From: an uncultured Nitrospiraceae bacterium
Lineage (GTDB): Bacteria > Nitrospirota > Thermodesulfovibrionia > Thermodesulfovibrionales > Dissulfurispiraceae
Direction of reading: 5' to 3'
DNA: 32,000 bases
Assembly (NCBI GenBank): GCA_963705105.1
Contig: CAVPIW010000006.1
Span: 922,989-954,988 of the forward strand
The position numbers and the translations under genes are program-made. Below the pieces are notes generated by a model. That model did no database searches and was not told the origin of the DNA. It saw nothing but the letters and a program-made list of their open reading frames with translations. Shown here piece by piece: positions 5,872-30,925 of the stretch (position 1 is its first letter; every line of letters starts with the position of its first letter).

Positions 5872-6086
5872 CGTTGTGAAAAGGCGGGGCGAAGCACTCT
5901 GAAAAGCAGTGACAGTGTGAGTGTGAGTGTCAGTGAAAGGAATCGTTCTTATATCGACGCTGCCGTCCTGGTATTCGTGACCTTGTTCCGACTGTCGACT
6001 GCCGACAATGACTTTAATGACTCAATGACTTAATGACTTGTGCGGTGGCATCGTCGCCCCGCCTTTCCGGAAGGAGTATGCAACGA
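5872..6086 (-). repeat. MITE-like intergenic element, copy 1 (inverted relative to the other copies)
   Basis: Near-identical to the copies at 14353, 19310, 23633 and 25174 when reverse-complemented. It lies between the rpsI terminator and the argC SD. Confidence 0.9.
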
Positions 6087-10700: not shown

Positions 10701-11055
10701 AACCTTATTGTTGCAATACACTCCCGGGAAAGGCGGAGCGACGATGCCACCGCAAGAGTCATTAAGTCATTGAGTCATTAAAGTCATTGTCGGCAGTCGA
10801 CAGTCGGAACAAGGTCACGAATACCAGGACGGGAAGGCTGATGTGGTGAAAAGCCTTTCCTCTAAGATACCTTGTTTATCCCCAGACCACCCTCTGCCGT
10901 GTCTATTGATACCGGAAGCCCGTCAGGCAACAGGCGCTGAACACCTTGCAATGTCTCATCATCGCATTGGAGAGGCTTTGAACTATATCTGCCTTCCCGG
11001 AGGCGCGTCGGTTTCAGCGGGGCCTTGAGGCGCTTCGCCCCGCCTTTCTATGCAA
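10701..11055 (+). repeat. MITE-like element, copy 3, variant with ~190-bp replacement module
   Basis: 10701-10837 matches the left two-thirds of the family and 11030-11055 matches the right terminal repeat (GCGCTTCGCCCCGCCTTTCTATGCAA). The stretch 10838-11029 is unrelated to the usual hexamer module. Confidence 0.8.
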
Positions 11056-11063
11056 GGTCAAAC

Positions 11064-13012
11064 CCATCTTCTACAGTTGGACCCGAAAAGCGCTCCGAAT
11101 CAGACATAAGAATCTATGAGAAACAGGGTGATATGAGGAGAGGAATTGGAAAGAAGCTCAAAACATAGTGCCACGTCATAGCCATTATAAGCTTGCCAAT
11201 AGGGATTAGAATGGGTATAATATTAATGTCATGTTCATCAGAATCAAACCATCCGGCCCCCGCTCCTATCTGCAGATCGTTGAAAGCCGATGGGAAAACG
11301 GCAAGGTCCGCCAGAAAGTCATCGCCACCCTGGGGCGTGTCGATAAACTCCGGGAATCGGGAGCTTTGGACAGCCTCGTACGCTCGGGGGCGCGGTTTTC
11401 AGAAAAGCTTGCCCTGCTTGATGCCTATGACAAGGGAGAGGTTCCGTCTGTGGGACAGCAAAAGATCGGACTGCCTCTGGTGTTTGGCCGACTATGGAAG
11501 GAACTCGGCATCCCGGACGTGATCACCCGCGTGCTGTCGCAGAGGAAGTATCAGTTTGCCGTGGAGAGGGCGATCTATCTGACGGTGCTGCACCGGCTCA
11601 GCGCATCGGGCTCTGACAGGGCGGCGGACAAGTGGAAGGACGACTACCGGATTGAGGCGGCGGAGGGGATCGAGCTGCACCACCTGTACCGGGCGATGGC
11701 ATGGTTAGGGGAGGAGTTGCCGGAGGACGACCAGGAAGGGGCGACACCCTTTGCCTGCCGGTGCACGAAGGACCTGATCGAAGAAGGGATCTTTGAGCGC
11801 CGGAGGGACCTGTTTACAGATCTCACCCTGGTGTTTTTTGACACCACGAGCATCTATTTTGAAGGAAATGGGGGAGAGGAGATCGGGCAGTTGGGCAACA
11901 GCAAGGACCACCGGCCTGACCTTCTGCAGATGGTGGTGGGTGTGATCATCGACAGCGCGGGTCGGCCGTTGTGCTGTGAGTTGTGGCCGGGCAACACGAC
12001 GGACGTCAAGAGCCTTCTTCCCGTCACCGAGAGATTACGCAAGCGGTTTGGGATCCAGCGGGTCTGTGTCGTGGCGGACCGGGGGATGATCAGCGCGGCG
12101 ACGGTCAAGGAGTTGCAGACGGGGGAGGTCCCGTACATCCTGGGCGCCCGGATGAGGAGACAGAAAGAGGTCACCCAGGAGGTGCTCAGCCGGGCGGGCA
12201 GGTATGAGGAAGTGTATCCCAAGGGTGCGGACAGCAAAGCGCCCTCACCGCTGAAAGTCAAGGACGTGCGTGTTGACGACAGACGGTACGTCGTCTGTTA
12301 CAACGAGGATCAGGCCAAGAAAGACGCTCTTGACCGGCAGAGTATCGTTGCCTCCCTGCGGGACAAACTGCAGCAGGGACACAAGACATTGGTGGGCAAC
12401 AAGGGGTACCGGAAGTACCTCAAGGCGACGGGGCAGAGGTTCGGGATCGATGAGGACAAGATCAAGGCGGAGGGACGGTATGACGGCAAGTGGGTCCTCA
12501 GGACGAACACGACACTGCCGGCGCGGGAGGTGGCGCTGCAGTACAAGCAGCTGTGGATGGTGGAGCAGATCTTCCGGAGCATGAAGAGCATCCTCAGCAC
12601 GCAGCCCATCTACCACAAGTGTGACGAGACGATCCGGGGGCATGTGTTCTGCAGTTTCCTTGCATTGGTGCTGATCAAGGAACTGCAGGGGCGGATGGAA
12701 AGGAAGGGGTGGCAGGCGGAATGGGCTGATGTGATCCGTGACCTGGAGAGGGTCGAAGAAGTGACGATCCGGACCGGTACGAAGGAGGTCCTTCTCCGGA
12801 GCGACCTCAAGGGACAAGCCGGCAAGGCGTTTCAGGCGGCGGGCGTGGCTGTGCCGCCGACAGTCAGGATACTGAATCAGACTGCATTGGACATGGAGAC
12901 GTCATGACAGTGAGCGTGAAGCTGACAAGGGGATTCCTAGTGCCACGCCCTTCTTGCGCCCTCATATCCCCTTGTTATAAGAAAGTTATTTTCTTGCTAC
13001 TGTAGAAGATGG
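11064..13012 (+). mobile_element. insertion sequence, IS4 superfamily (IS1634-like), apparently intact
   Basis: Terminal inverted repeats CCATCTTCTACAGT (11064-11077) and ACTGTAGAAGATGG (12999-13012). They are flanked by the direct repeat (G)GTCAAAC at 11056-11063 and 13012-13019. A single 558-aa transposase ORF lies inside. Confidence 0.85.
11231..12907 (+). CDS. DDE transposase, IS4 superfamily (IS1634-like)
   Basis: N-terminus MFIRIKPSGPRSYLQIVESRWENGKVRQKVIATLG. Candidate DDE residues lie in FFDTTSIYF, VVADRGMIS and YKQLWMVEQIFRSMKS (Y-R-E-K-like signature). Family recall is from memory. Confidence 0.85.
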   Translation: MFIRIKPSGPRSYLQIVESRWENGKVRQKVIATLGRVDKLRESGALDSLVRSGARFSEKLALLDAYDKGEVPSVGQQKIGLPLVFGRLWKELGIPDVITRVLSQRKYQFAVERAIYLTVLHRLSASGSDRAADKWKDDYRIEAAEGIELHHLYRAMAWLGEELPEDDQEGATPFACRCTKDLIEEGIFERRRDLFTDLTLVFFDTTSIYFEGNGGEEIGQLGNSKDHRPDLLQMVVGVIIDSAGRPLCCELWPGNTTDVKSLLPVTERLRKRFGIQRVCVVADRGMISAATVKELQTGEVPYILGARMRRQKEVTQEVLSRAGRYEEVYPKGADSKAPSPLKVKDVRVDDRRYVVCYNEDQAKKDALDRQSIVASLRDKLQQGHKTLVGNKGYRKYLKATGQRFGIDEDKIKAEGRYDGKWVLRTNTTLPAREVALQYKQLWMVEQIFRSMKSILSTQPIYHKCDETIRGHVFCSFLALVLIKELQGRMERKGWQAEWADVIRDLERVEEVTIRTGTKEVLLRSDLKGQAGKAFQAAGVAVPPTVRILNQTALDMETS

Positions 13013-14347: not shown

Positions 14348-14352
14348 ACCTT

Positions 14353-14581
14353 AACCTTATCGTTGCAACACACTCCCGGGAAAGGCGGAGCGATGATGCC
14401 ACCGCAAAAGTCATTAAGTCATTGAGTCATTAAAGTCATTGTCGGCAGTCGACAGTCGGAACAAGGTCACGAATACCAGGACGGGAAGGAAGCGTCGATA
14501 TAAAAACGATTCCTTTCACTGACACTGACACTCACACTGTCACTGTTTTTCAGAGCGCTTCACCCTGTCTTTCTGCACAAC
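14353..14581 (+). repeat. MITE-like element, copy 4
   Basis: Starts 6 nt after the argJ stop and ends 14 nt before the moeA stop (convergent genes). The right terminal repeat is degenerate (CTTCACCCTGTCTTTCTGCACAAC). Confidence 0.9.
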
Positions 14582-19277: not shown

Positions 19278-19309
19278 GTATCCTCCTCATGATCATTCAT
19301 TCGAGTATT

Positions 19310-19575
19310 ACCGTATCGTTGCATGGCTACCCCGGAAAGGCGGAGCGAAGATGCCACCGCACAAGTCATTAAGTCATTGAGTCATTAAAGTCATTGTCGG
19401 CAGTCGACAGTCGGAACAAGGTCACGAATACCAGGACGGCAGCGTCGATATAAAAACGATTCCTTTCACTGACACTGACACCCACACTGACACTGTTTTT
19501 CAGAGCCCTTTCACTGACACTGACACTCACACTGTCACTGTTTTTCAGAGCGCTCTGCCCTGTCTTTTCAGCGCC
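19310..19575 (+). repeat. MITE-like element, copy 5, with internal 45-bp tandem duplication
   Basis: Family sequence plus two 45-nt units (19464-19508 and 19509-19553) that differ at 3 positions. It lies between the rplY start and the prs stop. Confidence 0.9.
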
Positions 19576-20622: not shown

Positions 20623-20694
20623 CTGGGGCGCCAGGATTCGAACCTGGGAATGGCAGATCCAAAATCTGCTGACTTGCCGCTTGTCGACGCCCCA
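20623..20694 (-). tRNA. tRNA-Gln (anticodon UUG)
   Basis: The reverse complement reads TGGGGCG...GCAGA-TTTTGGA-TCTGC...GGTTCGAATCC...CGCCCCAG. It has a 7-bp acceptor stem, a TTG anticodon in a 7-nt loop and a T-loop GTTCGAATC, and is closely similar to E. coli tRNA-Gln. CCA is not encoded. Confidence 0.9.
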
Positions 20695-21645: not shown

Positions 21646-23412
21646 TCAGCGCTCCCCGGATTGACGAAGCTCCTTCAGCTTCTGCTCGACCCGGTCTTTC
21701 AGCCCCTCCTCCTTCTCGTGCTGGCGGAGGGACTTTTCATAACTTTCGATCGCCTTCGCGGGATCTCCCAGGGTCTTGTACACATCGCCGAGATGCTCAA
21801 AGAGAACGGGGTCGTCCTTCACCAGCTCCTGGGCGCGCAGCAGGGTCTTGAGAGCGTCGTCATGCCTCCCGAGCCTGAAATAGACCCAGCCGAGACTGTC
21901 GATGATGTACCCGCTGTCCGGCTTCAGATCAAGGGCCCGCTGAATGAGGGCAAGGGCTTCCTCGAGGTTGATCCCCTTGTCCGCATAGGAATAGCCGAGA
22001 TAGTTGAGGGCATCGGCATGCTTCGGGTTCAGCTCGATCGTCTTTTTGAGTGTGGCCACCAGCTCATCGAACTTCCCCGTTTTTTCATACACGACGGCCA
22101 TGAGAAAGTTGAGCTCGTCATTGTCGGGGAACTTTCCGAGCGCTCCCGTCACCACCTCACCGGCCTTGCCGTAGTCCTTGAGCGATATGTATGCATTCGC
22201 CAGAAAGGCATAGATATCAGGTTTATCCTTCTCGAAGGTGAGCACCTCCTCGTAAATCCGTGCCGCTTCAGCGTACTTGTTCTGCTTGCCATAGACCGAA
22301 GCCAGGGTGAGAAAAGCGCTCACATTTTTCGGATCTGCAGCAAGGATTTTTTTCAGTTCCGCCGCCGCCTCTTCATATCGCTGCAGCTCGGCCAGGACAA
22401 GGGCGAGGTAATACCGGGCCGACGCGTTGTCCGGGCGGGCTTCGAGTACGAGCCTGAACTCGTCGATCGCCTTGTCGAACTGGTTCTCCTGGACATACAG
22501 GAGGCCCAGCCGCTGGTGCAGGTCGATGTTCAGAGGCATGTCCTTCGCCGCCTCTTCGAGCTCCCTGATCGCCTTTTCGTAAGACTTGTCGGCCACGTAA
22601 AGCTGGGCGAGACGCTCCCGGGCATAGAGATTGTGAGGGTTGACGACAAGCACCTTCTTGTAATACTCCTCAGCCTCAGCGGGTTTGCCCCTGAGCTCGT
22701 TGATTATGCCGAGATTGAAATAGGCGGCATCGAAGGAGGGGTTGATCCCGATGATGGTGATGAAGCGCTCTTCAGCCTTTTGATATTTCTTGTCCTCGAG
22801 ATCCATCGAACCGAGGTAATACAGGGCCATGATATTTTCAGGCTCCTTTACGAGCACGTCGTCGAAGACCGCCCGGGCCTTCCCGCTCTCCCTTTTCGTC
22901 GCGTACATCGCGCCGAGATGGAGCCTCGCATCTATCCTCTCAGGGTCTTTTGAGATCACCTTTTCGTAGAGTGGAATCGCTTCGTCGAGCTTCTTCTGTG
23001 AGCCGTAGAGCTCGGCCAGCAGCATGAGGGCCGGGATGTGATCGGACGTCTCCTGCAGGACCTTCTCGAGTCCCGCGACGGCGTCCGATATCCTGCCCAG
23101 CTTGACGTACATCCGGCAGATCTGCGTCTTGACATGAGCTGACGACGGATCGATCTCGAGCACCTTCCCGTAATGTTCCAGGGCCGCCTCCCACTTCCCC
23201 CTGATCTCCGCTTCATATCCCAGAAAGTATTCGAGATAGGCCGACTGCACGTACTTCTCCGCTGTGTCAGAGCGCTGCGGTTTCGTTATTTCGGCATAAA
23301 AAGCGAAGACGGGGCCGCTCTGTGCAGTCAGAATGACGGACAGAAAGAGGGACAGCGAGACGATATATGCAGACATCAATAGTCTTCTCCGGCGAAAGGA
23401 TTGATCTATCAT
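21646..23412 (-). CDS. TPR-repeat protein with N-terminal signal/anchor
   Basis: 588 aa of repeated 34-aa TPR-like units (…A..Y..vL..dP.n..A...La.lY…). N-terminus MIDQSFRRRRLLMSAYIVSLSLFLSVILTAQS. An alternative start is at 23376 (SD GGAGAAG). Confidence 0.85.
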   Translation of the reverse strand: MIDQSFRRRRLLMSAYIVSLSLFLSVILTAQSGPVFAFYAEITKPQRSDTAEKYVQSAYLEYFLGYEAEIRGKWEAALEHYGKVLEIDPSSAHVKTQICRMYVKLGRISDAVAGLEKVLQETSDHIPALMLLAELYGSQKKLDEAIPLYEKVISKDPERIDARLHLGAMYATKRESGKARAVFDDVLVKEPENIMALYYLGSMDLEDKKYQKAEERFITIIGINPSFDAAYFNLGIINELRGKPAEAEEYYKKVLVVNPHNLYARERLAQLYVADKSYEKAIRELEEAAKDMPLNIDLHQRLGLLYVQENQFDKAIDEFRLVLEARPDNASARYYLALVLAELQRYEEAAAELKKILAADPKNVSAFLTLASVYGKQNKYAEAARIYEEVLTFEKDKPDIYAFLANAYISLKDYGKAGEVVTGALGKFPDNDELNFLMAVVYEKTGKFDELVATLKKTIELNPKHADALNYLGYSYADKGINLEEALALIQRALDLKPDSGYIIDSLGWVYFRLGRHDDALKTLLRAQELVKDDPVLFEHLGDVYKTLGDPAKAIESYEKSLRQHEKEEGLKDRVEQKLKELRQSGER

Positions 23413-23432
23413 GGACAGATCTTCAGCCCTGC

Positions 23433-23464
23433 AGAAAAAGAAGAGGGGTCTCGACGAGACCCCC
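23433..23464 (-). terminator. intrinsic terminator of the mini-gene
   Basis: The minus strand reads GGGGTCT-CGTCG-AGACCCC followed by TCTTCTTTTTCT. It starts 24 nt after the mini-ORF stop. Confidence 0.75.
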
Positions 23465-23487
23465 GATGTAATCCAAAGCCCCGGTGT

Positions 23488-23550
23488 TTAGCAGGAGCTC
23501 TTGCACTTGCAGGTTGTTGATACCTTCTTTGAAACTTTCCTGATCACCAT
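23488..23550 (-). CDS. 20-aa Lys/Cys-rich small ORF MVIRKVSKKVSTTCKCKSSC (candidate small protein or RiPP precursor)
   Basis: Too short for the ORF track. ATG 23550 has GGAGGTG 12 nt upstream, its own extended -10 promoter, and a terminator right after the TAA at 23488-23490. Confidence 0.4.
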   Translation of the reverse strand: MVIRKVSKKVSTTCKCKSSC

Positions 23551-23605
23551 GTTGACTCTTCACCTCCCCTTCAAAGGGAATACGAAGGCTTCATGCCCCG
23601 CTGAC

Positions 23606-23614
23606 ATTATACCA
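23606..23614 (-). promoter_or_regulatory. extended -10 promoter TGGTATAAT
   Basis: The minus strand reads ...GATTTATGGTATAATGTCAGC..., a perfect TATAAT with an upstream TGn. The -35 position coincides with the edge of MITE copy 6. Confidence 0.5.
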
Positions 23615-23632
23615 TAAATCAGGTTCTTCTTT

Positions 23633-23855
23633 ACCTTATCGCTGCAATACATTCCCGGGAAAGGCGGAGCGAAGATGCCACCGCAAGAGTCATTAAGTCA
23701 TTGAGTCATTAAAGTCATTGTCGGCAGTCGACAGTCGGAACAAGGTCACGAATACCAGGACGGCAGCGTCGATATAAAAACGATTCCTTTCACTGACACT
23801 GACACTCACACTGACACTGTTTTCAGAGTGCTTCGCCCCGCCTTTTCATGCAACG
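23633..23855 (+). repeat. MITE-like element, copy 6
   Basis: Full-length copy. Its right terminal repeat CTTCGCCCCGCCTTTTCATGCAACG ends 8 nt from the radical SAM stop codon (23863-23865). Confidence 0.92.
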
Positions 23856-23862
23856 CCCCGGA

Positions 23863-25038
23863 TCATGCCGGAAAATCCTTGAGCCCGTAAGCGGAGCATT
23901 TGTAAGGATCGCGTCTCCCCTGCCCCAAAGATGTCTCCGCCCTGAAACGGCAGCCCCCACGGCATACATCGATGTGGCCGCAGGAGATGCGCGCACATTC
24001 CAGCTCATCGAGACGGACGGGACTGACCCGGCCCCACGCTGCGCGGAGCCCCCCGCTTACCTTCCCTGCCGGTTTGTCCCCGTAGAAGGCGCATTTGGCG
24101 ACCGTTCCGTCCGCCAGGACCGAGGCGAGATGGAGACCGCAGCCGTAACCTTTACCGCCGCCATGGAGCCCTCCCCCGAATCCATAGGAAAAATAAGGGC
24201 CGGCGATCTCGGGAGGGACCTGGAAGAGCGCGTTTTCAGCGAAGCTTCCCGAGACGCAGGGGACATCGACGGTCCAGTCCCTGATGCCCATGCCCCTGAA
24301 AAGGAGATCCATTCCGTCGAATTCCTCCAGGTTTTCCCGGTGCACCATCGTGGCGACCGAGACGGACATCCCTTCAGAAAGGGCGTCACCGATCCTGTCC
24401 ATCACCTTACCGTATGTCCCCTTCCCCCTCAGGGCCTCGTGGCCGTGCTCCATGCCGTCGACACTGAACTGGATCTCGTCGACGTTGAGCCCCCTGATGA
24501 GGTCCTTCCGGAGCAGGAGACCGTTTGTAAAGAGGACCTTCCTGAAGGCGTAAAACGGCAGATCGTTGTTGAACTCCTGAAAGCTGCTGTGCAGGAGGGG
24601 CTCACCGCCGCTGATGAGGAGCCGCAGCCCCTGCATCTCCTCGAATTCGCGGAGCACGCGACGCAATGAGTCGATGGGGAGTTCTCTGTCCGAAGGCTTT
24701 CCGATGTAACAATGCCTGCACCGGAGGTTGCACTTCGTCGTGATCTGGAGCTCGAGGTACCGCAGGGACGGGACGGGGGATTTCAGCAGAGGCGGTCTCC
24801 TGACGGCAACACGCCTCTCCGTCAGCAGGCCCTCGGAAAGACAGTCGTCGATAAAAGACCGGTCGGCCTGCGAGCCGTCGCACCCTTCGTCGGAGGCGCA
24901 TCCCTGCAGGAAGGAGAAGGCACTGTCGTCGACCTCATAGAGTTCGTCATTCTCAATATCATAGACAGAGGGTTCTTCAAGCCGTTTAAGGGCACATCTG
25001 TCTGAAAGATAGTATCGCACCATGTATTCTACCATCAT
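23863..25038 (-). CDS. radical SAM/SPASM domain protein with N-terminal PqqD/RRE-like extension (peptide-maturase-like)
   Basis: CNLRCRHC (CxxxCxxC) follows a ~95-aa N-terminal region. C-terminal Cys cluster: GCGLHLASVLADGTVAKC, CARISCGHIDVCRGGC and YKC, a SPASM-like pattern. Confidence 0.85.
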   Translation of the reverse strand: MMVEYMVRYYLSDRCALKRLEEPSVYDIENDELYEVDDSAFSFLQGCASDEGCDGSQADRSFIDDCLSEGLLTERRVAVRRPPLLKSPVPSLRYLELQITTKCNLRCRHCYIGKPSDRELPIDSLRRVLREFEEMQGLRLLISGGEPLLHSSFQEFNNDLPFYAFRKVLFTNGLLLRKDLIRGLNVDEIQFSVDGMEHGHEALRGKGTYGKVMDRIGDALSEGMSVSVATMVHRENLEEFDGMDLLFRGMGIRDWTVDVPCVSGSFAENALFQVPPEIAGPYFSYGFGGGLHGGGKGYGCGLHLASVLADGTVAKCAFYGDKPAGKVSGGLRAAWGRVSPVRLDELECARISCGHIDVCRGGCRFRAETSLGQGRRDPYKCSAYGLKDFPA

Positions 25039-25151
25039 CCCTCAGCATCGGGGATCATGGTACAGCGATGCGAAATGCTTGCCCCTTCCGACACCAGGAC
25101 CATGAGGGGGATCGCTTCAGCACTCAAGAAGAGACGGATCGGCGGCCTCAT
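25035..25151 (-). CDS. hypothetical 38-aa upstream ORF overlapping the radical SAM start (ATGA); doubtful
   Basis: MRPPIRLFLSAEAIPLMVLVSEGASISHRCTMIPDAEG. Its stop TGA overlaps the rSAM ATG. There is only a weak SD-like GGTGGA 2 nt before the ATG. The longer track ORF runs into the MITE. Confidence 0.2.
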   Translation of the reverse strand: MRPPIRLFLSAEAIPLMVLVSEGASISHRCTMIPDAEG

Positions 25152-25173
25152 AGTCCACCGGGGCAGCGAGATA

Positions 25174-25391
25174 AACCTTATCGTTGCAATACACTCCCGG
25201 GAAAGGCGGAGCGAAGATGCCACCGCAAGAGTCATTAAGTCATTGAGTCATTAAAGTCATTGTCGGCAGTCGACAGTCGGAACAAGGTCACGAATACCAG
25301 GACGGCCGCGTCGATATAAAAACGATTCCTTTCACTGACACTCACACTGTCACTGTTTTTCAGAGCGCTTTGTCCCGCCTTTGCATGCAAC
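25174..25391 (+). repeat. MITE-like element, copy 7
   Basis: Full-length copy with one hexamer unit fewer than copies 4 and 6. It lies between the rSAM upstream region and the high-GC block. Confidence 0.92.
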
Positions 25392-25536
25392 AGAAAGGTT
25401 AAGAAAGAAACTGTCGGAACCCGGGTATGGGCCGTCCCGTCAAGGCGGCTGTTCATCGCCTGTTCGAGACAGAAACATTTTCCCGTGAGCCCGCCGCCGG
25501 GTCACTGGCAGAGCCGACGGTCGAGACCCCTGCACG

Positions 25537-25986
25537 TCACGTTCCGCGCCGCCCCACGGCGTCGCGCAACGTGGTGATCATGTGCTGCAAGATCGCCATC
25601 AACGCCGCGGCGGTCATACCGAGCATCAGCACGCCGTTCACAGCCTCGAGCGGGCCGAGCAGCCTGCGCTCGCGGCTCATCACGATGTCACCGTAACCGA
25701 GCGACGTGAAATTCACGGCCGAGTGGTAAATCGCGTCGTACGGCTGCTCGAACTCGCCGAGTCCAAGGAAGAGCCCGCCCCACAGAGCGATTTGCACAAA
25801 GTTGCCGACCATCATCACCACCGTCACGACGATCAACGGGGCAATGCCCACCAGGAAGCCGCGGCCACTGCCGATCACCGACGATCGCCCCACGTAGTAG
25901 CGCACGCACCAGAAGGCCACGGCCACCTGCACGATCAGGCACAGCAACGTCACCGGAAGGCCGATCAGAAAATTGACCAGTGTCAT
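25537..25986 (-). CDS. small K+-channel-like protein (TM helices plus pore loop with TSLGYGD)
   Basis: The 149-aa product carries the selectivity-filter-like sequence NFTSLGYGDIV. ATG 25986 overlaps the stop of the upstream gene (ATGA). The track ORF was trimmed from 26073. Confidence 0.8.
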   Translation of the reverse strand: MTLVNFLIGLPVTLLCLIVQVAVAFWCVRYYVGRSSVIGSGRGFLVGIAPLIVVTVVMMVGNFVQIALWGGLFLGLGEFEQPYDAIYHSAVNFTSLGYGDIVMSRERRLLGPLEAVNGVLMLGMTAAALMAILQHMITTLRDAVGRRGT

Positions 25987-27029
25987 GGTGTCTCCTTCGA
26001 TAGGATCATAGAGGTCGCTGCCGGAGGCGATCTCCGGTCGCGCCAGCGCTCGAGCGCCCACACGGTCGCCCATGCGTAGAACGCGACACCGACGAAGAGG
26101 CTCACGCGCATCGCGGCGCCTTCAAGCACGCTCTTGCCGCTTGCGCTGTCCTCGATCGCCGGACCGAGCAGGATCAGCGCGGTGATCAGGGCGTTGCTCC
26201 AATAGGACGGCGGGTACCGGGTGCGCCGCATGCGGTAGAGCGCCGAGCCCGCCCAGAGCGACGCGGCCATCAACCACAGCACGAGCATCCACAAGCTCGG
26301 CCAAAGCGACAGGCCAAGCCAGACCGCGAGCGCGATCAGCGCTCCCATCAGCGTCGAACCGACCAGCTCACGTCCGGCGGTTCGCGCATCGGTCTCGCCG
26401 GCCTGCTGGCCGAGCGCCACCGTCTTCATGATCGCCGCCAGGTAGAATGACGGGTCCGTCAGCGCGAGCACGAACACCGGCATCACGATCAGCGTGCCGC
26501 GCAGCGCGATCCAGCGCGCCATCGCGGGATCCGGCCGGATCCCTTGCCGTGTGGCCCCCGGCGTCGGCGGGTCAGGAAAGACGGCTGCCGACACTGCGCC
26601 GACGAGCGTGCCGACAAGCACGCCGACCGCGAAGGTCTTGCTGAGTACGCCGACCAGAGCCTGCTCGGATACGCCGGCCACCGGAACCAGCGTGAAAGCC
26701 AGAACCAGGACCGTGGTCAGCGGGTTGCGCCTCAACCGCCCGACGAAGAACAGCGCGAACAGCAGCGCCGCGGTCACGAGCAGGCCGGCGAACGCGAAGT
26801 GCTGGAGCAGGGGGACCATCGTTACGCCGGCAGCGACCATCAGCGACAGCGCGCACGCGACGACCACCGCCTTCAGCAGCGGCAGCGGCGGTCCCGGCTT
26901 GGATAGTACGAGCACCGCGAGGATGCAGACGAGGTACGGAGCCTGCAGCGCCATTCCGTAAGCGACAAACGCCGCCAGGCCTGTGCCGACCGTCAGCCGC
27001 AGCGCCGCCTTGTCGCCCCGGGACATCAT
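25983..27029 (-). CDS. polytopic inner-membrane protein, FUSC/DUF2955-like putative efflux component
   Basis: 348 aa and very hydrophobic, with multiple predicted TM helices. It sits directly after a HlyD-type gene with overlapping stop and start. The family name is tentative (from memory). Confidence 0.75.
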   Translation of the reverse strand: MMSRGDKAALRLTVGTGLAAFVAYGMALQAPYLVCILAVLVLSKPGPPLPLLKAVVVACALSLMVAAGVTMVPLLQHFAFAGLLVTAALLFALFFVGRLRRNPLTTVLVLAFTLVPVAGVSEQALVGVLSKTFAVGVLVGTLVGAVSAAVFPDPPTPGATRQGIRPDPAMARWIALRGTLIVMPVFVLALTDPSFYLAAIMKTVALGQQAGETDARTAGRELVGSTLMGALIALAVWLGLSLWPSLWMLVLWLMAASLWAGSALYRMRRTRYPPSYWSNALITALILLGPAIEDSASGKSVLEGAAMRVSLFVGVAFYAWATVWALERWRDRRSPPAATSMILSKETP

Positions 27030-28195: not shown

Positions 28196-29796
28196 CTTGT
28201 CTCCTCCGGCAGCGGTGGAAGGAATTCGGTCGCCGGTGACGGAAGGGGCGCCGTCAGCAGATTTCGCCAGTCGCTGCGCTCGGACATCGCTGCCTGCGTG
28301 GCATCGTCGAGCACGGGCCGCAGCCGGCCAGCCTCCCAGCCGCCCCCCAATGCCTTGTACACGGCGATCAGGTTCTTCGCGACGTTGCCCTCGCTTGTCA
28401 CCAGGCGCTCTTGCTGGTTGAACAGCGCGCGTTGCGAATCGAGCACACGCTGAAAGTCGACCAGCCCCTCGCGATACTGAAGGGTGGCGATGTCCAGCGA
28501 GCGGCGCGCCGCCTTTACCGCCTCGCGCAGGATGTCGACCTGCGCGCGACTGCGTGCGAAGCCCGTGGCGACGTCGTCCAGTTCGCGAGCGGCCCGCAGC
28601 ACCACGTCCTGATACTGCTCGTACAGTTGCTGGAAGCCGGCATCCTGTACAAGCACCTGGTTCGTTAGGCGGCCGTAGTCGAACACGTTCCACACCAGCG
28701 CCGGCCCGAGCACCCAGCCGAGCGTGCTGCCCGTCGAACCGACCGAGGCGGCCGACAGCGCTAACGATCCGGCGAGGGCGATCGAAGGATAGAGCGCCGC
28801 CTCGCTGACGCCGATCTGCGCCGACTGCGCGGCCAGCTGCAATTCGGCCGCGCGCACGTCGGGACGCCGGCGCAGCAGCGCAGCGGGCAGCCCGTCGATC
28901 ACGCTTAGCGGCGCATCGGGAATCTTCGCACGCCCACTGCTCATCTCTGTCAGCGGTCCTGGCGGGCGCGCGAGCAGCACGCACAACGCGTTCTGCGCCT
29001 GGCGCAGGCTGCTTTCCAGCTCCGGAATCGTGGCCAGCGTGCTCAGGTACTGCGACCGCGCCTGCTGCACATCGAGTTCCGAGTCGTTGCCGCTGCGGAA
29101 CAGCCGTTCGGTGATCTCCAGACTCCGTTGCTGGAGGGCGGCGTTATCGTGCGCAAAGTCAAGGTGGCGCTCGATTGTGCGGATTGCCGCGTAGAGACTC
29201 GCCGTCTGCGCTGCCACCAGCACCTGGACGTCATCGTACTGCGCGATGCTGACGAAGTACGCGGCGTCGGCGGATTCGATGCCACGCCTGAACTTTCCCC
29301 AGAAGTCGATCTCCCAGGCGATGTCGAAGGCCACTCCCGCAGACCAGTAAGATTGGCCGCGGTCGTCTTCCGCGCGCCTGAAAACCGCTTCGCGGCTGCT
29401 GCTGCCCTCGCTGCCCACGCGCAGCACCTCGCCCGTCACCTGTTGCAGCTGCGGATACAGTGCACTGCCGGCGATGCCGAGCCTGGCGCGCGCCTCCATG
29501 ATGCGCATGCCGGCGATCAGCACGCCGGGATTCACGCGCTGCGCCTCGCCGACCAGGCGGTCGAGCGCAGGGTCGCCGAACGTGCGCCACCACTCGTCGT
29601 GCGGCACCGGGGCGCGAGGCGGCGCGGCGTCGACGAGCGCACGCCACTCCCCGCCCGGCCAGTCCCGCAACCACGGCACCTGCGGGCGCGCGAAATCAGG
29701 TCCGACCGTTGTGCACGCGCCGAGCGCGAGCGCGGCAGCCAGTGCCATCAGTGACAACAGAGGGCCGCGCATCGCGGCCGTCGCCGAGCGTATCAC
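28192..29796 (-). CDS. efflux outer-membrane factor lipoprotein, NodT family
   Basis: Lipobox ALALGAC followed by TTVGPDFARP, the typical NodT/OprM-family N-terminus. 534 aa. The start could instead be Met9 at 29772. Confidence 0.9.
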   Translation of the reverse strand: MIRSATAAMRGPLLSLMALAAALALGACTTVGPDFARPQVPWLRDWPGGEWRALVDAAPPRAPVPHDEWWRTFGDPALDRLVGEAQRVNPGVLIAGMRIMEARARLGIAGSALYPQLQQVTGEVLRVGSEGSSSREAVFRRAEDDRGQSYWSAGVAFDIAWEIDFWGKFRRGIESADAAYFVSIAQYDDVQVLVAAQTASLYAAIRTIERHLDFAHDNAALQQRSLEITERLFRSGNDSELDVQQARSQYLSTLATIPELESSLRQAQNALCVLLARPPGPLTEMSSGRAKIPDAPLSVIDGLPAALLRRRPDVRAAELQLAAQSAQIGVSEAALYPSIALAGSLALSAASVGSTGSTLGWVLGPALVWNVFDYGRLTNQVLVQDAGFQQLYEQYQDVVLRAARELDDVATGFARSRAQVDILREAVKAARRSLDIATLQYREGLVDFQRVLDSQRALFNQQERLVTSEGNVAKNLIAVYKALGGGWEAGRLRPVLDDATQAAMSERSDWRNLLTAPLPSPATEFLPPLPEETR

Positions 29797-30925
29797 TCGA
29801 GGTGCCCGGCGTCCGCGTTGGCCGGCGGGAGCTTCGCCTCCGATTTTTCTCCGCGACCCAGCTCATGAAGAGCTGGTAGCCCAGCGCCAGCAGCGTCGCG
29901 CCGACGAACATCCCGAGAATGCCCGCAGCCGCCATCCCGCCGAGAGCGCCGAGCAGAATGACCGGCATCGGCGCCTCGACCCCGCGGCCCAGCATCAACG
30001 GCTTGAGGACGTTGTCGGCCATGCCCGAGACGATCAACAGCACAGTGTAAGCGATCGCCTCGAACGTCCCGTAGGTGCCGGTCCACCAGATATAGCCGAT
30101 CGCCGGCAGAGTGACGATGAGCGCCGGCACTTGGGCGATGCCGAGCACCAGGACGATGGCCGCCAGCGCGCCCACCCAAGGCACGCCGGCGATCAGCAGG
30201 CAGACGCCGACGATGATGGCCTGAATGAACGCGACACCGATGACGCCTTGAGCGACCGCGCGGATCGTCGCGGTGACAAGCACGGTATACTCGGCGCCGC
30301 GCTCATCGCCCGCGAAGCGCCTGAAGATCGACTCGCAGCTCCGCGCGCCTGCCTCCCCGAAGGCCATGACGATCCCGGCGATGATCAGCGCGGCGACGAA
30401 CAACAGGAGCCCGGTGCCGATGCTGGCGACAAAGCCGAGCGCAGCCTTGGCGATTTCGCCGAGCTTCGGCTGCATGCTCTGCACCAATCCCGGCAGATCC
30501 GCGTAAGCCTGCGACCAGACGGCGTACACCTTACCGCCGACCACCGGCCATTGAGCCACCGATTCGCGCGGTGCCGGAATCTTGAGCGTGTTGTTCTGCA
30601 CGTCGATGATTAACTGTTGCAAGGAGTCGCCCAGCGAACTCATCAGCAGGGCGGTCGGCACGACGATCACCATGAAGCCGAGGAGCACCAGCAGCGTAGC
30701 CGCCAGCCCCTGCTTGCCGCCGATCTTGCGAGCCAACGCCTGATGCAGCGGATACAACGAAACGGCCAGGATCACCGCCCAGATCATCAGCGTCAGGAAC
30801 GGCGAAAAGACCTTAAAGCACAGGAGGGCCAGGGCGAGGATCAGGCCGGCACGAATCAGGACATCCAGCAAAAGGGATGCTAACCGGTGTTCGAGTTCTT
30901 GATCAAGCTGGGGGGGGGTGTTCAT
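29696..30925 (-). CDS. AI-2E family transporter (PerM/YhhT-like permease)
   Basis: 409 aa, multi-TM, with a typical AI-2E layout (FSPFLTLMIWAVILAVSLYPL..., VPALIVTLPAIGYIW...). SD GGAG lies 7 nt before the ATG. The 3' end overlaps the OMF start by ~100 nt. Confidence 0.85.
   Translation of the reverse strand: MNTPPQLDQELEHRLASLLLDVLIRAGLILALALLCFKVFSPFLTLMIWAVILAVSLYPLHQALARKIGGKQGLAATLLVLLGFMVIVVPTALLMSSLGDSLQQLIIDVQNNTLKIPAPRESVAQWPVVGGKVYAVWSQAYADLPGLVQSMQPKLGEIAKAALGFVASIGTGLLLFVAALIIAGIVMAFGEAGARSCESIFRRFAGDERGAEYTVLVTATIRAVAQGVIGVAFIQAIIVGVCLLIAGVPWVGALAAIVLVLGIAQVPALIVTLPAIGYIWWTGTYGTFEAIAYTVLLIVSGMADNVLKPLMLGRGVEAPMPVILLGALGGMAAAGILGMFVGATLLALGYQLFMSWVAEKNRRRSSRRPTRTPGTSSDTLGDGRDARPSVVTDGTGCRARARRVHNGRT

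Follow-up and report, generated by a model that had tools for sequence, protein, structure and literature searches.

A Radical SAM/SPASM Enzyme and an Adjacent 20-Codon Gene Form a Candidate Peptide-Maturation System in a Dissulfurispiraceae-Like Nitrospirota Chromosome

A gene for a radical SAM enzyme and a gene of 20 codons that follows it on a Dissulfurispiraceae-like (Nitrospirota) chromosome probably form a two-gene module, a new peptide-maturation system. The enzyme, as read from its sequence and predicted structure, joins an RRE to a radical SAM core and a SPASM domain, and its ribosomal substrate would be the 20-residue peptide encoded beside it. The pair, found here in a window of 32,000 nucleotides (the whole stretch of DNA analyzed), is undescribed and occurs again in hundreds of anaerobic bacteria. 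Neither the enzyme subfamily nor the peptide is covered by a model in Pfam or NCBIfam, searches with the peptide having found nothing in either collection, and literature searches on the peptide motif, related radical SAM RiPPs, and SPASM-cupin proteins returned nothing relevant. If the pairing is true, one enzyme with a 20-residue substrate would be among the smallest RRE-dependent radical SAM systems. The pair offers a testable target for new Cys- or Lys-centered radical chemistry and a means of testing how an RRE recognizes a leader of ~10 residues. The features of the locus are collected in Table 1.

Table 1. Features of the enzyme–peptide locus and copies of the repeat, in window coordinates
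Feature	Position	Strand	Basis or remark
Intrinsic-terminator-like hairpin (9-bp stem, 6 G-C pairs) and T-run	23434..23464	(-)	~23 nt past peptide stop
20-codon precursor-like gene encoding MVIRKVSKKVSTTCKCKSSC	23488..23550, stop codon included	(-)	ORF and conservation
Shine-Dalgarno sequence GGGGAGGTG	23561..23569	(-)	Read from sequence; 10 nt 5' of peptide start codon
MITE-like repeat copy between enzyme and peptide genes	23633..23855	(+)	8 nt from enzyme stop
Radical SAM/SPASM peptide-maturase-like gene	23863..25038	(-)	391 codons, longest ORF
SPASM domain, seven conserved Cys	23887..24150	(-)	Alignment and TIGR04085
CxxxCxxC radical SAM cluster motif, C103/C107/C110 (CNLRCRHC)	24709..24732	(-)	Read off sequence
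N-terminal RRE-like domain (about residues 6-75), four β-strands then two helices	24814..25023	(-)	Predicted structure
Second MITE-like copy, upstream of enzyme	25175..25391	(+)	~137 nt from first ATG; 93% identical to 23633 copy
Further repeat copy	5872-6068		Inverted
Further repeat copy	10702-11055		Variant core
Further repeat copy	14350-14572		
Further repeat copy	19308-19570		

Domain Architecture of the Enzyme

More than 100 full-length homologues, 56–93% identical to the enzyme, carry the names Nitrospirota, Thermodesulfovibrionales, or Dissulfurispiraceae. They begin at the position of Met6 (MVRYYLS) of the 391-residue ORF, and the true start of the enzyme is therefore probably position 25023. 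A preliminary description of this DNA had read a radical SAM site and a Cys-rich, SPASM-like C-terminus from the letters, and both readings held. The enzyme is a member of the radical SAM superfamily: the three cysteines of its cluster motif are invariant in an alignment of 31 homologues, Pfam Radical_SAM (PF04055) reaches 65.9 bits (cut-off 29.5), and a fold search superimposes the predicted core on structures of radical SAM enzymes. At the other end, seven cysteines (C300, C316, C348, C353, C359, C363, and C381) are invariant in the same alignment, with the spacing C-x15-C ... C-x4-C-x5-C-x3-C ... C. The region is a SPASM domain, matched by TIGR04085 in the last 108 residues over profile positions 4–93 of 93 with 27.6 bits, barely over the cut-off of 27; Pfam PF13186 (SPASM) found no match in the enzyme, and Pfam scans of its isolated N- and C-terminal parts returned nothing. 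Matched over its full length, the predicted fold resembles SkfB, SuiB, and CteB, and also anSME, while the best sequence matches in the PDB are SkfB, CteB, and PqqE.

RREs are small three-stranded β-sheet folds packed on helices that bind the leader peptide. The N-terminus had been likened to a PqqD-like RiPP recognition element, and this likeness is borne out by the predicted fold and not by a Pfam match: PqqD (PF05402) does not match the sequence, and the N-terminal 90 residues have no Pfam hit up to E=10. AlphaFold models the N-terminal ~75 residues with confidence, at a pLDDT of about 90, and the domain model has a pLDDT of 83.6; when the isolated domain is compared with the PDB by Foldseek, the top 20 fold matches are all RREs, among them TbiB1, a lasso B1 protein, ThcOx, LynD/TruD, TigE, CteB, and SuiB. 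By its modeled fold the domain is an RRE, at E-values that are modest, the best being 7e-3 (TbiB1 5v1v, TM 0.57).

The 20-Codon Gene

The peptide gene starts 312 nt from the enzyme stop codon on the same strand, where a Cys-rich mini-gene of 20 residues had been noticed at ~310 nt. Comparison across homologous loci shows that it is genuinely coding and kept under purifying selection. Its 71 distinct DNA versions are each exactly 20 codons long, the column entropy at codon positions 1, 2, and 3 is 0.40, 0.41, and 1.20, and a GGAGG-type ribosome-binding site precedes the gene in essentially all homologous loci; the constant length, the threefold higher variation at third positions, and the ribosome-binding site exclude a spurious ORF. 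Genes of 20 codons, which gene callers skip, are reliably recoverable from conservation alone.

The consensus of the peptide is M-x-I-[KR]-K-[VI]-x-K-K-x-[AS]-x-T-C-K-C-K-x-S-C. Residues M1, I3, C14, K15, C16, S19, and C20 are invariant among the 60 unique peptides from loci found through the enzyme (enzyme-first loci), an invariance found with those positions left free in the search. The module usually ends in a terminator: of 186 loci, 99 have a terminator-like hairpin at most 90 nt past the peptide stop, as do only 2 of 186 shuffled controls. A scan for sigma-70 promoters in window positions 23300–25600 gave no hits.

Conservation of the Enzyme–Peptide Pair

The peptide follows the enzyme homologue in 72 of 84 enzyme-first loci, always with 20 codons. 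Starting instead from the peptide, a metagenome scan found it in 119 loci, and the enzyme adjoins it in 84 of the 93 that could be assessed. Conservation of the pair extends to at least 484 species-level genomes and to many metagenome contigs. In Thermodesulfobacteriota the enzyme occurs in a fused form with the peptide upstream of it, and the two genes thus stay adjacent across two phyla and an inverted gene order. The preliminary description had staked its proposal on such persistence of the mini-gene beside homologues, and had named a sulfatase or a quinohemoprotein as neighbors that would speak against it; no homologue was found next to either, no sulfatase occurs among the called or clustered neighbor genes, and the mini-gene is the sole constant neighbor. 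Peptide tail subtypes, moreover, track enzyme clades. By these comparisons the locus has the hallmark of a RiPP locus: the gene for a precursor and that for its modifying enzyme lie together and are inherited together.

In nine enzyme loci the peptide does not occur within 4 kb, a DsrE-like gene taking its place in three of them, and nine assessable peptide genes (about 10%) have no enzyme nearby, so that the adjacency is strong and not absolute. The stand-alone peptide genes lie by genes for YHS-domain proteins, a Met-rich protein, catalase, Hyp/NiFe-hydrogenase proteins, and glutaredoxin/rubredoxin. Recurrent neighbors of the pair itself are rubrerythrin, Fe/Mn superoxide dismutase, and nitroreductase. 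Both sets of neighbors point to a role in redox, metal, or sulfur handling. The enzyme had also been called an orphan, which is apt for this lineage but not for others, where it is accompanied by, or fused to, a Cys-rich domain and a small cupin; sequence searches of Pfam, NCBIfam, and the PDB give no relative of the Cys-rich accessory protein.

As had been observed before, no protease and no other precursor-type gene adjoins the enzyme in the window. An efflux set (DUF2955-like, HlyD, OEP) lies 1–5 kb upstream of it. The HlyD/OEP genes were considered as an exporter and set aside; they belong to a block of 68–69% GC and are absent from the 25 neighbor-gene clusters most widely shared among the 84 enzyme-first loci, which include no peptidase or exporter cluster at all. 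Since protease, exporter, and immunity genes are lacking and both genes pass down vertically amid housekeeping genes, the product of the pair is probably a small modified peptide that works within the cell. Together with the oxidative-stress and metal-related neighbors, this inheritance and the lack of export and protease genes suggest a physiological rather than an antibiotic role in strict anaerobes, and the product may be related to cofactors, redox chemistry, or metals.

Comparison with Known Maturation Systems

The enzyme reaches the cut-off of no NCBIfam maturase equivalog (WgkB, StsB, SkfB, ACGX, and others), the best score being 74 bits where 650 are required. SkfB (TIGR04403) scores 50 against 300, StsB 44.6 against 625, PqqE 42.6 against 381, and MftC 60.6 against 265. 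The heme-pathway enzymes NirJ1, AhbC, and AhbD score about as high as the peptide maturases, and sequence alone therefore leaves the substrate class of the enzyme unfixed.

Among the closest known systems is SCIFF, the CteB-type ranthipeptide system of Clostridia. Its maturase CteB has the same three-part architecture and is among the best matches by both sequence and fold, and in both systems a short Cys-rich precursor gene lies beside the enzyme. SCIFF is widely conserved among anaerobes by vertical descent and has no protease or exporter of its own. In contrast, the SCIFF precursor has ~45 residues rather than 20 and the C-K-C-x-x-S-C tail of the peptide described here is unrelated to it; the present system belongs to Nitrospirota and Thermodesulfobacteriota, is joined in many lineages by a Cys-rich domain and a cupin as accessories, and its thioether is putative.

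The sactisynthases SkfB, AlbA, and ThnB likewise use an N-terminal RRE and Cys donors, as proposed here, and SkfB heads the PDB matches both in sequence, at 82.5 bits, and in fold, with 385 aligned columns. SkfB, however, has a twitch domain where the present enzyme has a full SPASM domain. Sactipeptide loci include genes for export, immunity, and proteolysis and are distributed sporadically, whereas the module described here has none of these genes and is vertically inherited.

The precursors of PQQ and mycofactocin are also very short. In PqqA/PqqD/PqqE and MftA/MftB/MftC, precursors of ~23–30 residues have their reactive positions close to the C-terminal end, the first step falls to an RRE-dependent radical SAM/SPASM enzyme, the product is intracellular, and the systems are conserved as a physiological trait rather than as an antibiotic. 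PqqE and MftC are among the matches of the enzyme. The RRE, a separate protein in those systems, is fused to the enzyme here, the peptide has no Glu/Tyr or Val/Tyr pairs, and no pqqB/C/D/F or mftB/D/E/F genes occur near enzyme homologues, among called genes or the 25 most shared clustered neighbors. Finally, anSME is also a SPASM radical SAM enzyme, acts on Cys/Ser side chains, and matches the fold over its full length. It has no RRE, and its substrates carry a C/S-x-P-x-R motif; the present enzyme has a predicted RRE fold, its peptide does not contain that motif, and the anSME model NF010321 gives 9.7 bits against a cut-off of 441.

Proposed Mechanism

We infer the modification of the peptide and its chemistry from family resemblance only. 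The RRE would take up the conserved, basic first half of the peptide (M-x-I-K-K-V-x-K-K) as an extra β-strand, which would bring the invariant C-K-C-x-x-S-C of the C-terminus to the active site. About 10 residues are left for recognition in a precursor of 20, which is short for RRE-dependent systems, a caveat already raised in outline by the preliminary description. The SPASM domain would hold two auxiliary Fe-S clusters, and a peptide thiolate may ligate one of them at the active site, as in CteB, while the 5'-deoxyadenosyl radical would take a hydrogen from the peptide. The most likely outcome would be at least one intramolecular thioether of the sactionine or ranthionine type, from the sulfur of a cysteine to a carbon of Lys15, Ser19, or a neighboring residue, with C14, C16, and C20 present as donors. 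Sactipeptides carry such links on Cα, ranthipeptides on Cβ or Cγ. By analogy with these families a Cys-derived thioether is our leading guess, and other Cys-centered chemistry, C-terminal oxidative decarboxylation or formylglycine-type oxidation, may occur in its place.

A wider proposal is offered tentatively, as a possibility somewhat to be doubted. The C-K-C-x-x-S-C peptide could be the precursor of a new radical-SAM-matured intracellular cofactor, or that cofactor itself, serving as a thiol/thioether redox, metal, or sulfur carrier within the core physiology of anaerobes that reduce sulfate or live in syntrophy (Thermodesulfovibrionia, Desulfobaccales, Syntrophobacterales). It would then stand beside PQQ and mycofactocin rather than antibiotic RiPPs, with the Cys-rich domain and the cupin as further maturation partners in many lineages.

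Alternative Readings of the Peptide

The peptide could instead be an unmodified small binder of metal or sulfur (a mini-metallothionein, a chaperone, or a persulfide carrier) that works alongside an enzyme with another substrate, such as a cofactor, a heme-like molecule, or a protein. This would account for the stand-alone peptide genes and their neighbors, for the peptide-less enzyme loci and the DsrE-like genes in three of them, and for NCBIfam scores to NirJ and Ahb enzymes that are similar to those to peptide maturases. The predicted RRE, a peptide-recognition fold, argues against it, as do an adjacency that outlasts a change of gene order across phyla and peptide subtypes that co-vary with enzyme clades. 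Extra precursor copies elsewhere in the genome are, besides, common in RiPP systems. An unmodified binder is unlikely on balance, and the peptide as substrate of its neighbor is preferred.

A second alternative holds that the mini-ORF is an attenuation leader for TPR-ispE-prs, translation of its Lys and Cys codons governing the terminator that follows. There is indeed a strong terminator-like hairpin between the mini-ORF and the TPR gene in the window, and such hairpins are common past the mini-ORF in other loci. The comparative data nevertheless make this reading very improbable. TPR-ispE lies downstream in only about 27 of the 84 enzyme-first loci, and the gene after the peptide is convergent in 33 of 68. 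Conservation at the amino-acid level covers the peptide over its whole length, beyond the few codons of a regulatory stretch. The ORF tracks the enzyme and not any fixed downstream operon; across genomes, the peptide travels with the enzyme rather than with TPR-ispE-prs. As a separate observation, the TPR protein matches the MamA model above its cut-off, which was treated as a repeat artefact.

The Repeat Element

The repeat that separates the two genes spans ~225 nt and has terminal inverted repeats that match imperfectly, GAAAGGCGGRGCGAAG / CTTCGCYCCGCCTTTYC (core ~17 nt). It has at least six copies in the window, 92–97% identical across the shared part, in both orientations and in intergenic positions. 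It is thus short, non-coding, bounded by terminal inverted repeats, and present in many copies, as bacterial MITEs are; unlike them, some copies keep the ends around a different core (window 10702-11055 and the closest relative, L207). No clear target-site duplication is seen at the aligned flanks of the copies. A DDE transposase gene (11231-12907) adjoins the variant copy; no transposase cognate to the repeat was found. Rfam finds only tRNA-Gln in the whole window, so the repeat and the inter-gene gap are not a known RNA family, and the fold of the repeat as RNA has a modest z-score of -2.05, which arises from pairing of the inverted ends.

The preliminary description had seen the look of a composite cassette in the two same-orientation copies that flank the enzyme, placed by it at 8 and ~135 nt and found at 8 and ~137 nt, and had itself cautioned that the spacing of copies is general in the window. 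The caution was justified: copies occur in intergenic gaps every 1.5–5 kb, so that the bracketing of the enzyme is incidental. That a mobile cassette bounded by these copies carried the radical SAM gene here, for which the GC-rich sequence upstream of the second copy, different from that of relatives, might be cited along with their placement, is hardly credible, since the order enzyme - peptide - TPR - ispE - tRNA-Gln/prs is kept in relatives without these repeats, the peptide gene would fall outside the cassette, other gaps hold the repeat as well, and between the same two genes L207 has a relative of the element that shares its ends but not its core. The gene order is ancestral, and the copy between enzyme and peptide is a later insertion, incidental to the system. 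A spacing of ~90 nt had been reckoned for the two genes before it, which agrees with gaps of about 20–160 nt in repeat-free relatives, and the insertion left the ORF, the ribosome-binding site, and the terminator intact.

A conserved 20-codon gene follows the enzyme

In the window, a ribosome-binding site (GGGGAGGTG) lies 10 nt upstream of the start of the 20-codon open reading frame that follows the radical SAM/SPASM enzyme. In Dissulfurispira thermophila and two long contigs from metagenomes, the gap between the enzyme and TPR genes encodes MVIRKVSKKGATTCKCKGSC, MVIRKVSKKGSTTCKCKGSC and MVIKKIAKKTATTCKCKGSC, each beginning approximately 50 nt past the enzyme stop. In every one of 71 distinct DNA versions the frame is 20 codons long and is preceded by a GGAGG-type site, and column entropies at codon positions 1, 2 and 3 are 0.40, 0.41 and 1.20. 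These three features together indicate a translated gene under purifying selection and do not fit an RNA element or a chance ORF. The preliminary description had proposed this mini-gene as a candidate substrate.

Among 60 unique peptides from loci found via the enzyme, a set whose search left these positions free, M1, I3, C14, K15, C16, S19 and C20 are invariant, while K5, T13 and K17 are almost so. A terminator-like hairpin follows the gene in 99 of 186 loci, compared with 2 of 186 shuffled controls. A terminator behind the peptide gene is a layout known from RiPP precursor genes, and it is also found here where the peptide gene precedes the enzyme.

Features of the window and of homologous loci (L numbers; L207 is the closest relative's contig)
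Feature	Location	Strand	Remark
Enzyme ORF	23863-25038	-	391 codons
20-codon ORF, MVIRKVSKKVSTTCKCKSSC	23488-23550	-	312-nt gap downstream of enzyme
Strong terminator-like hairpin	23464-23444		Downstream of peptide gene
Repeat copies	~23633-23855; 25175-25391		Either side of enzyme
Further repeat copies	5872-6068 (inverted); 14350-14572; 19308-19570
Variant-core repeat copy	10702-11055
DDE transposase gene	11231-12907		Just downstream of variant-core copy
tRNA-Gln (anticodon TTG)	20623-20694	-	Between ispE and prs
TPR protein	21646-23412	-
K+ channel-like gene	25537-26073		Low-coordinate edge of GC-rich block
AI-2E transporter gene	29696-30925		High-coordinate edge of GC-rich block
Element of closest relative	L207 3144-3350		Between enzyme and peptide genes
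Cys-rich protein	Among L026-L083, e.g. L053 3613-3954	-	Uncharacterised
Small cupin (weak Cupin_2 match)	L085 6505-6846; L086 6497-6847; L029, L067		Fused in L039, L057, L078
DUF1284 protein	L003 7573-7977; L014, L016, L019, L052, L066, L077, L082		Divergent, upstream of enzyme

Linkage of peptide and enzyme

A species-level genome scan returned 484 enzyme relatives, and the best 80 of these loci, with three synteny loci and the window, make up a set of 84. In 72 of them the enzyme is closely followed by a 20-codon family gene, which in four has a GTG or TTG start; one further peptide gene is cut by a contig end, two contigs are too short to tell, and in nine loci no peptide gene was found within 4 kb. 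The TPR-ispE-prs genes lie downstream in only about 27 of the 84, and the gene after the peptide is convergent in 33 of 68 loci. Gene order thus assigns the peptide to the enzyme and not to the TPR operon. Three of the nine peptide-less loci (L034, L035, L036) have a DsrE/DsrF-like sulfur-relay gene immediately after the enzyme.

Metagenome contigs were also scanned with a back-translated peptide pattern. At least 120 stretches matched; among the matches listed, 119 are apparently genuine and hold 120 peptide genes, one contig (L195) having two. The enzyme adjoins 84 of these 120 listed genes, lying upstream in 65, downstream in 16 and otherwise nearby in 3; it is absent near nine that have enough flanking DNA, and its presence is not assessable for 27. 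The pair is also rearranged in other ways: in L132 an opposite-strand peptide gene is separated from the enzyme by 25 nt, contig L195 has its two peptide copies at a distance of 1.9 kb, and in L147 a 2.1-kb insertion parts enzyme and peptide, with TPR following the peptide.

In a neighbour-joining tree of 136 enzymes, the peptide tail subtypes (...TTCKCKGSC, ...[TL]TCKCKSSC, ...FSGLCKCKASC and ...RGLCKCKSSC) follow the enzyme clades, and peptide-less enzymes are spread over the tree rather than forming one clade.

Sequence and predicted structure of the enzyme

All homologues begin at the sixth residue of the ORF (MVRYYLS...), so the true start is probably at 25023. Radical_SAM is the sole Pfam domain (65.9 bits, residues 98-242). 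When aligned with 30 homologues, the CxxxCxxC motif (C103, C107, C110) and seven C-terminal cysteines (C300, C316, C348, C353, C359, C363, C381) prove invariant. The SPASM model TIGR04085 matches the final 108 residues at its threshold (27.6 bits, cut-off 27). Both results agree with the radical SAM site and Cys-rich SPASM-like C-terminus first described. No NCBIfam equivalog comes near its cut-off: the top model, WgkB, scores 74 bits against 650, with NirJ1 and similar heme-pathway enzymes about equal.

The full-length AlphaFold model (mean pLDDT 82.7, last 30 residues poorly defined) can be superposed over its whole length on SkfB, SuiB and CteB, solved RRE-radical SAM-SPASM/twitch peptide maturases that are also its top PDB matches by sequence. 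Modelled in isolation, residues 1-90 (pLDDT 83.6) form four strands followed by two helices, and all 20 top PDB fold matches are RREs, namely those of TbiB1 (in complex with a leader peptide), a lasso B1 protein, ThcOx, LynD/TruD, TigE, CteB and SuiB. The E-values are weak (best 7e-3, TM 0.57), yet the match list is specific. The RRE suggested earlier for the N-terminus is therefore favoured by predicted fold, while the PqqD resemblance found no sequence match in Pfam.

Accessory proteins and neighbours

In 33 loci a divergent gene immediately upstream of the enzyme encodes a Cys-rich protein of approximately 110 residues (LC..FC.YYKP...C..C.F..DCDF...PCGGF). Among 1.84 billion representative proteins, approximately 60 full-length members of the enzyme family turned up, five of them (P0124, P0128, P0130, P0134, P0140) approximately 500 residues long with this domain at the N-terminus. 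Relatives of these long forms are named as Thermodesulfobacteriota (Desulfobaccales, Syntrophobacterales, Desulfobacca), and the gene fusion links the Cys-rich protein to the enzyme. Three long-form loci carry the 20-codon gene upstream of the enzyme, encoding MKIRKVQKSKRGLCKCKSSC, MKIKKVAKASQGLCKCAKSC and MKIRKLTKTSRGLCKCHSSC. The Cys-rich protein has no sequence relative in Pfam, NCBIfam or the PDB.

At least 15 loci have a small cupin, either fused to the Cys-rich protein or encoded nearby, which may add a third or fourth component to the system. In eight loci, mostly those with the TPR-ispE arrangement, a DUF1284 protein occupies the divergent position instead; it matches the 'CXXX repeat peptide maturase' model very weakly (15.8 bits). 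None of the three proteins is encoded in the window. The genes that recur nearby encode rubrerythrin-type proteins (31 loci), Fe/Mn superoxide dismutase (12), nitroreductase (7) and DsrC-like proteins. Neither a protease nor an exporter is found in the 25 neighbour clusters that most loci share.

A candidate enzyme-substrate pair

Taken together, the results support an enzyme and a substrate dedicated to each other, of the RRE-dependent radical SAM/SPASM kind. The mechanism proposed is modelled on CteB, SkfB and PqqE: the basic N-terminal half of the peptide would bind the RRE as a leader does, leaving the invariant C-K-C-x-x-S-C tail as the target of the radical chemistry. For the reaction itself a thioether is the favoured guess, a tentative one at rather less than an even chance.

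The main rival reading has the peptide bind metal or sulfur in unmodified form, as a simple companion of the enzyme. It is kept alive by stand-alone peptide copies (L114, L146, L174, L186, L172, L179, L191), whose tails often read ...SCKCHQSC. These copies adjoin YHS-domain proteins, a Met-rich secreted protein, catalase, HypA/HypB with NiFe-hydrogenase, or glutaredoxin/rubredoxin, neighbours that hint at a metal or oxidative-stress role. Two findings count against an unmodified binder: the predicted RRE fold, and peptide subtypes that co-vary with the enzyme clades. A possible cofactor-like, redox, metal or sulfur role is in keeping with where the system occurs and with the genes around it.

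The enzyme subfamily, the peptide and the Cys-rich partner all lack a model in Pfam and NCBIfam, and the literature searched mentions none of them. Though its kind is known, the system forms a new family. Its substrate of 20 residues, its vertical inheritance in the manner of housekeeping genes and its new accessory domains are unusual.

Chromosomal setting

The repeats are approximately 225 nt long with imperfect inverted ends. The two copies flanking the enzyme ORF lie 8 nt and about 137 nt from its ends, and these distances were correctly described. The accompanying idea of a composite cassette does not hold. The window shares the order enzyme-small gap-TPR-IspE-Prs-L25-Pth-PepA-phospholipase C-like-MoeA with D. 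thermophila and two long metagenomic contigs, which indicates that the enzyme gene is in its ancestral chromosomal position and rules the cassette out. The closest relative, a Dissulfurispiraceae MAG with a 93% identical enzyme, carries at this site between the two genes an element with both ends shared and a different core; the insertion is therefore old or recurrent and not a cassette boundary. The variant-core copy in the window likewise shares both ends and differs internally.

Between 26000 and 30000, GC content is 68-69%, compared with approximately 58% elsewhere, and the block encodes an adaptor of the HlyD family, a DUF2955-like membrane protein and an outer-membrane efflux protein. 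This efflux island was probably acquired horizontally; its gene types and those of the two genes at its edges are absent from the 25 most shared neighbour clusters of the homologous loci. The TPR protein exceeds the NCBIfam cut-off for the magnetosome protein MamA (243 bits against 200) by way of six separate matches to its repeats, which is most likely an artefact of the TPR repeats. Its counterparts in relatives begin with a signal sequence like that of lipoproteins, and there the gene is always followed by ispE.
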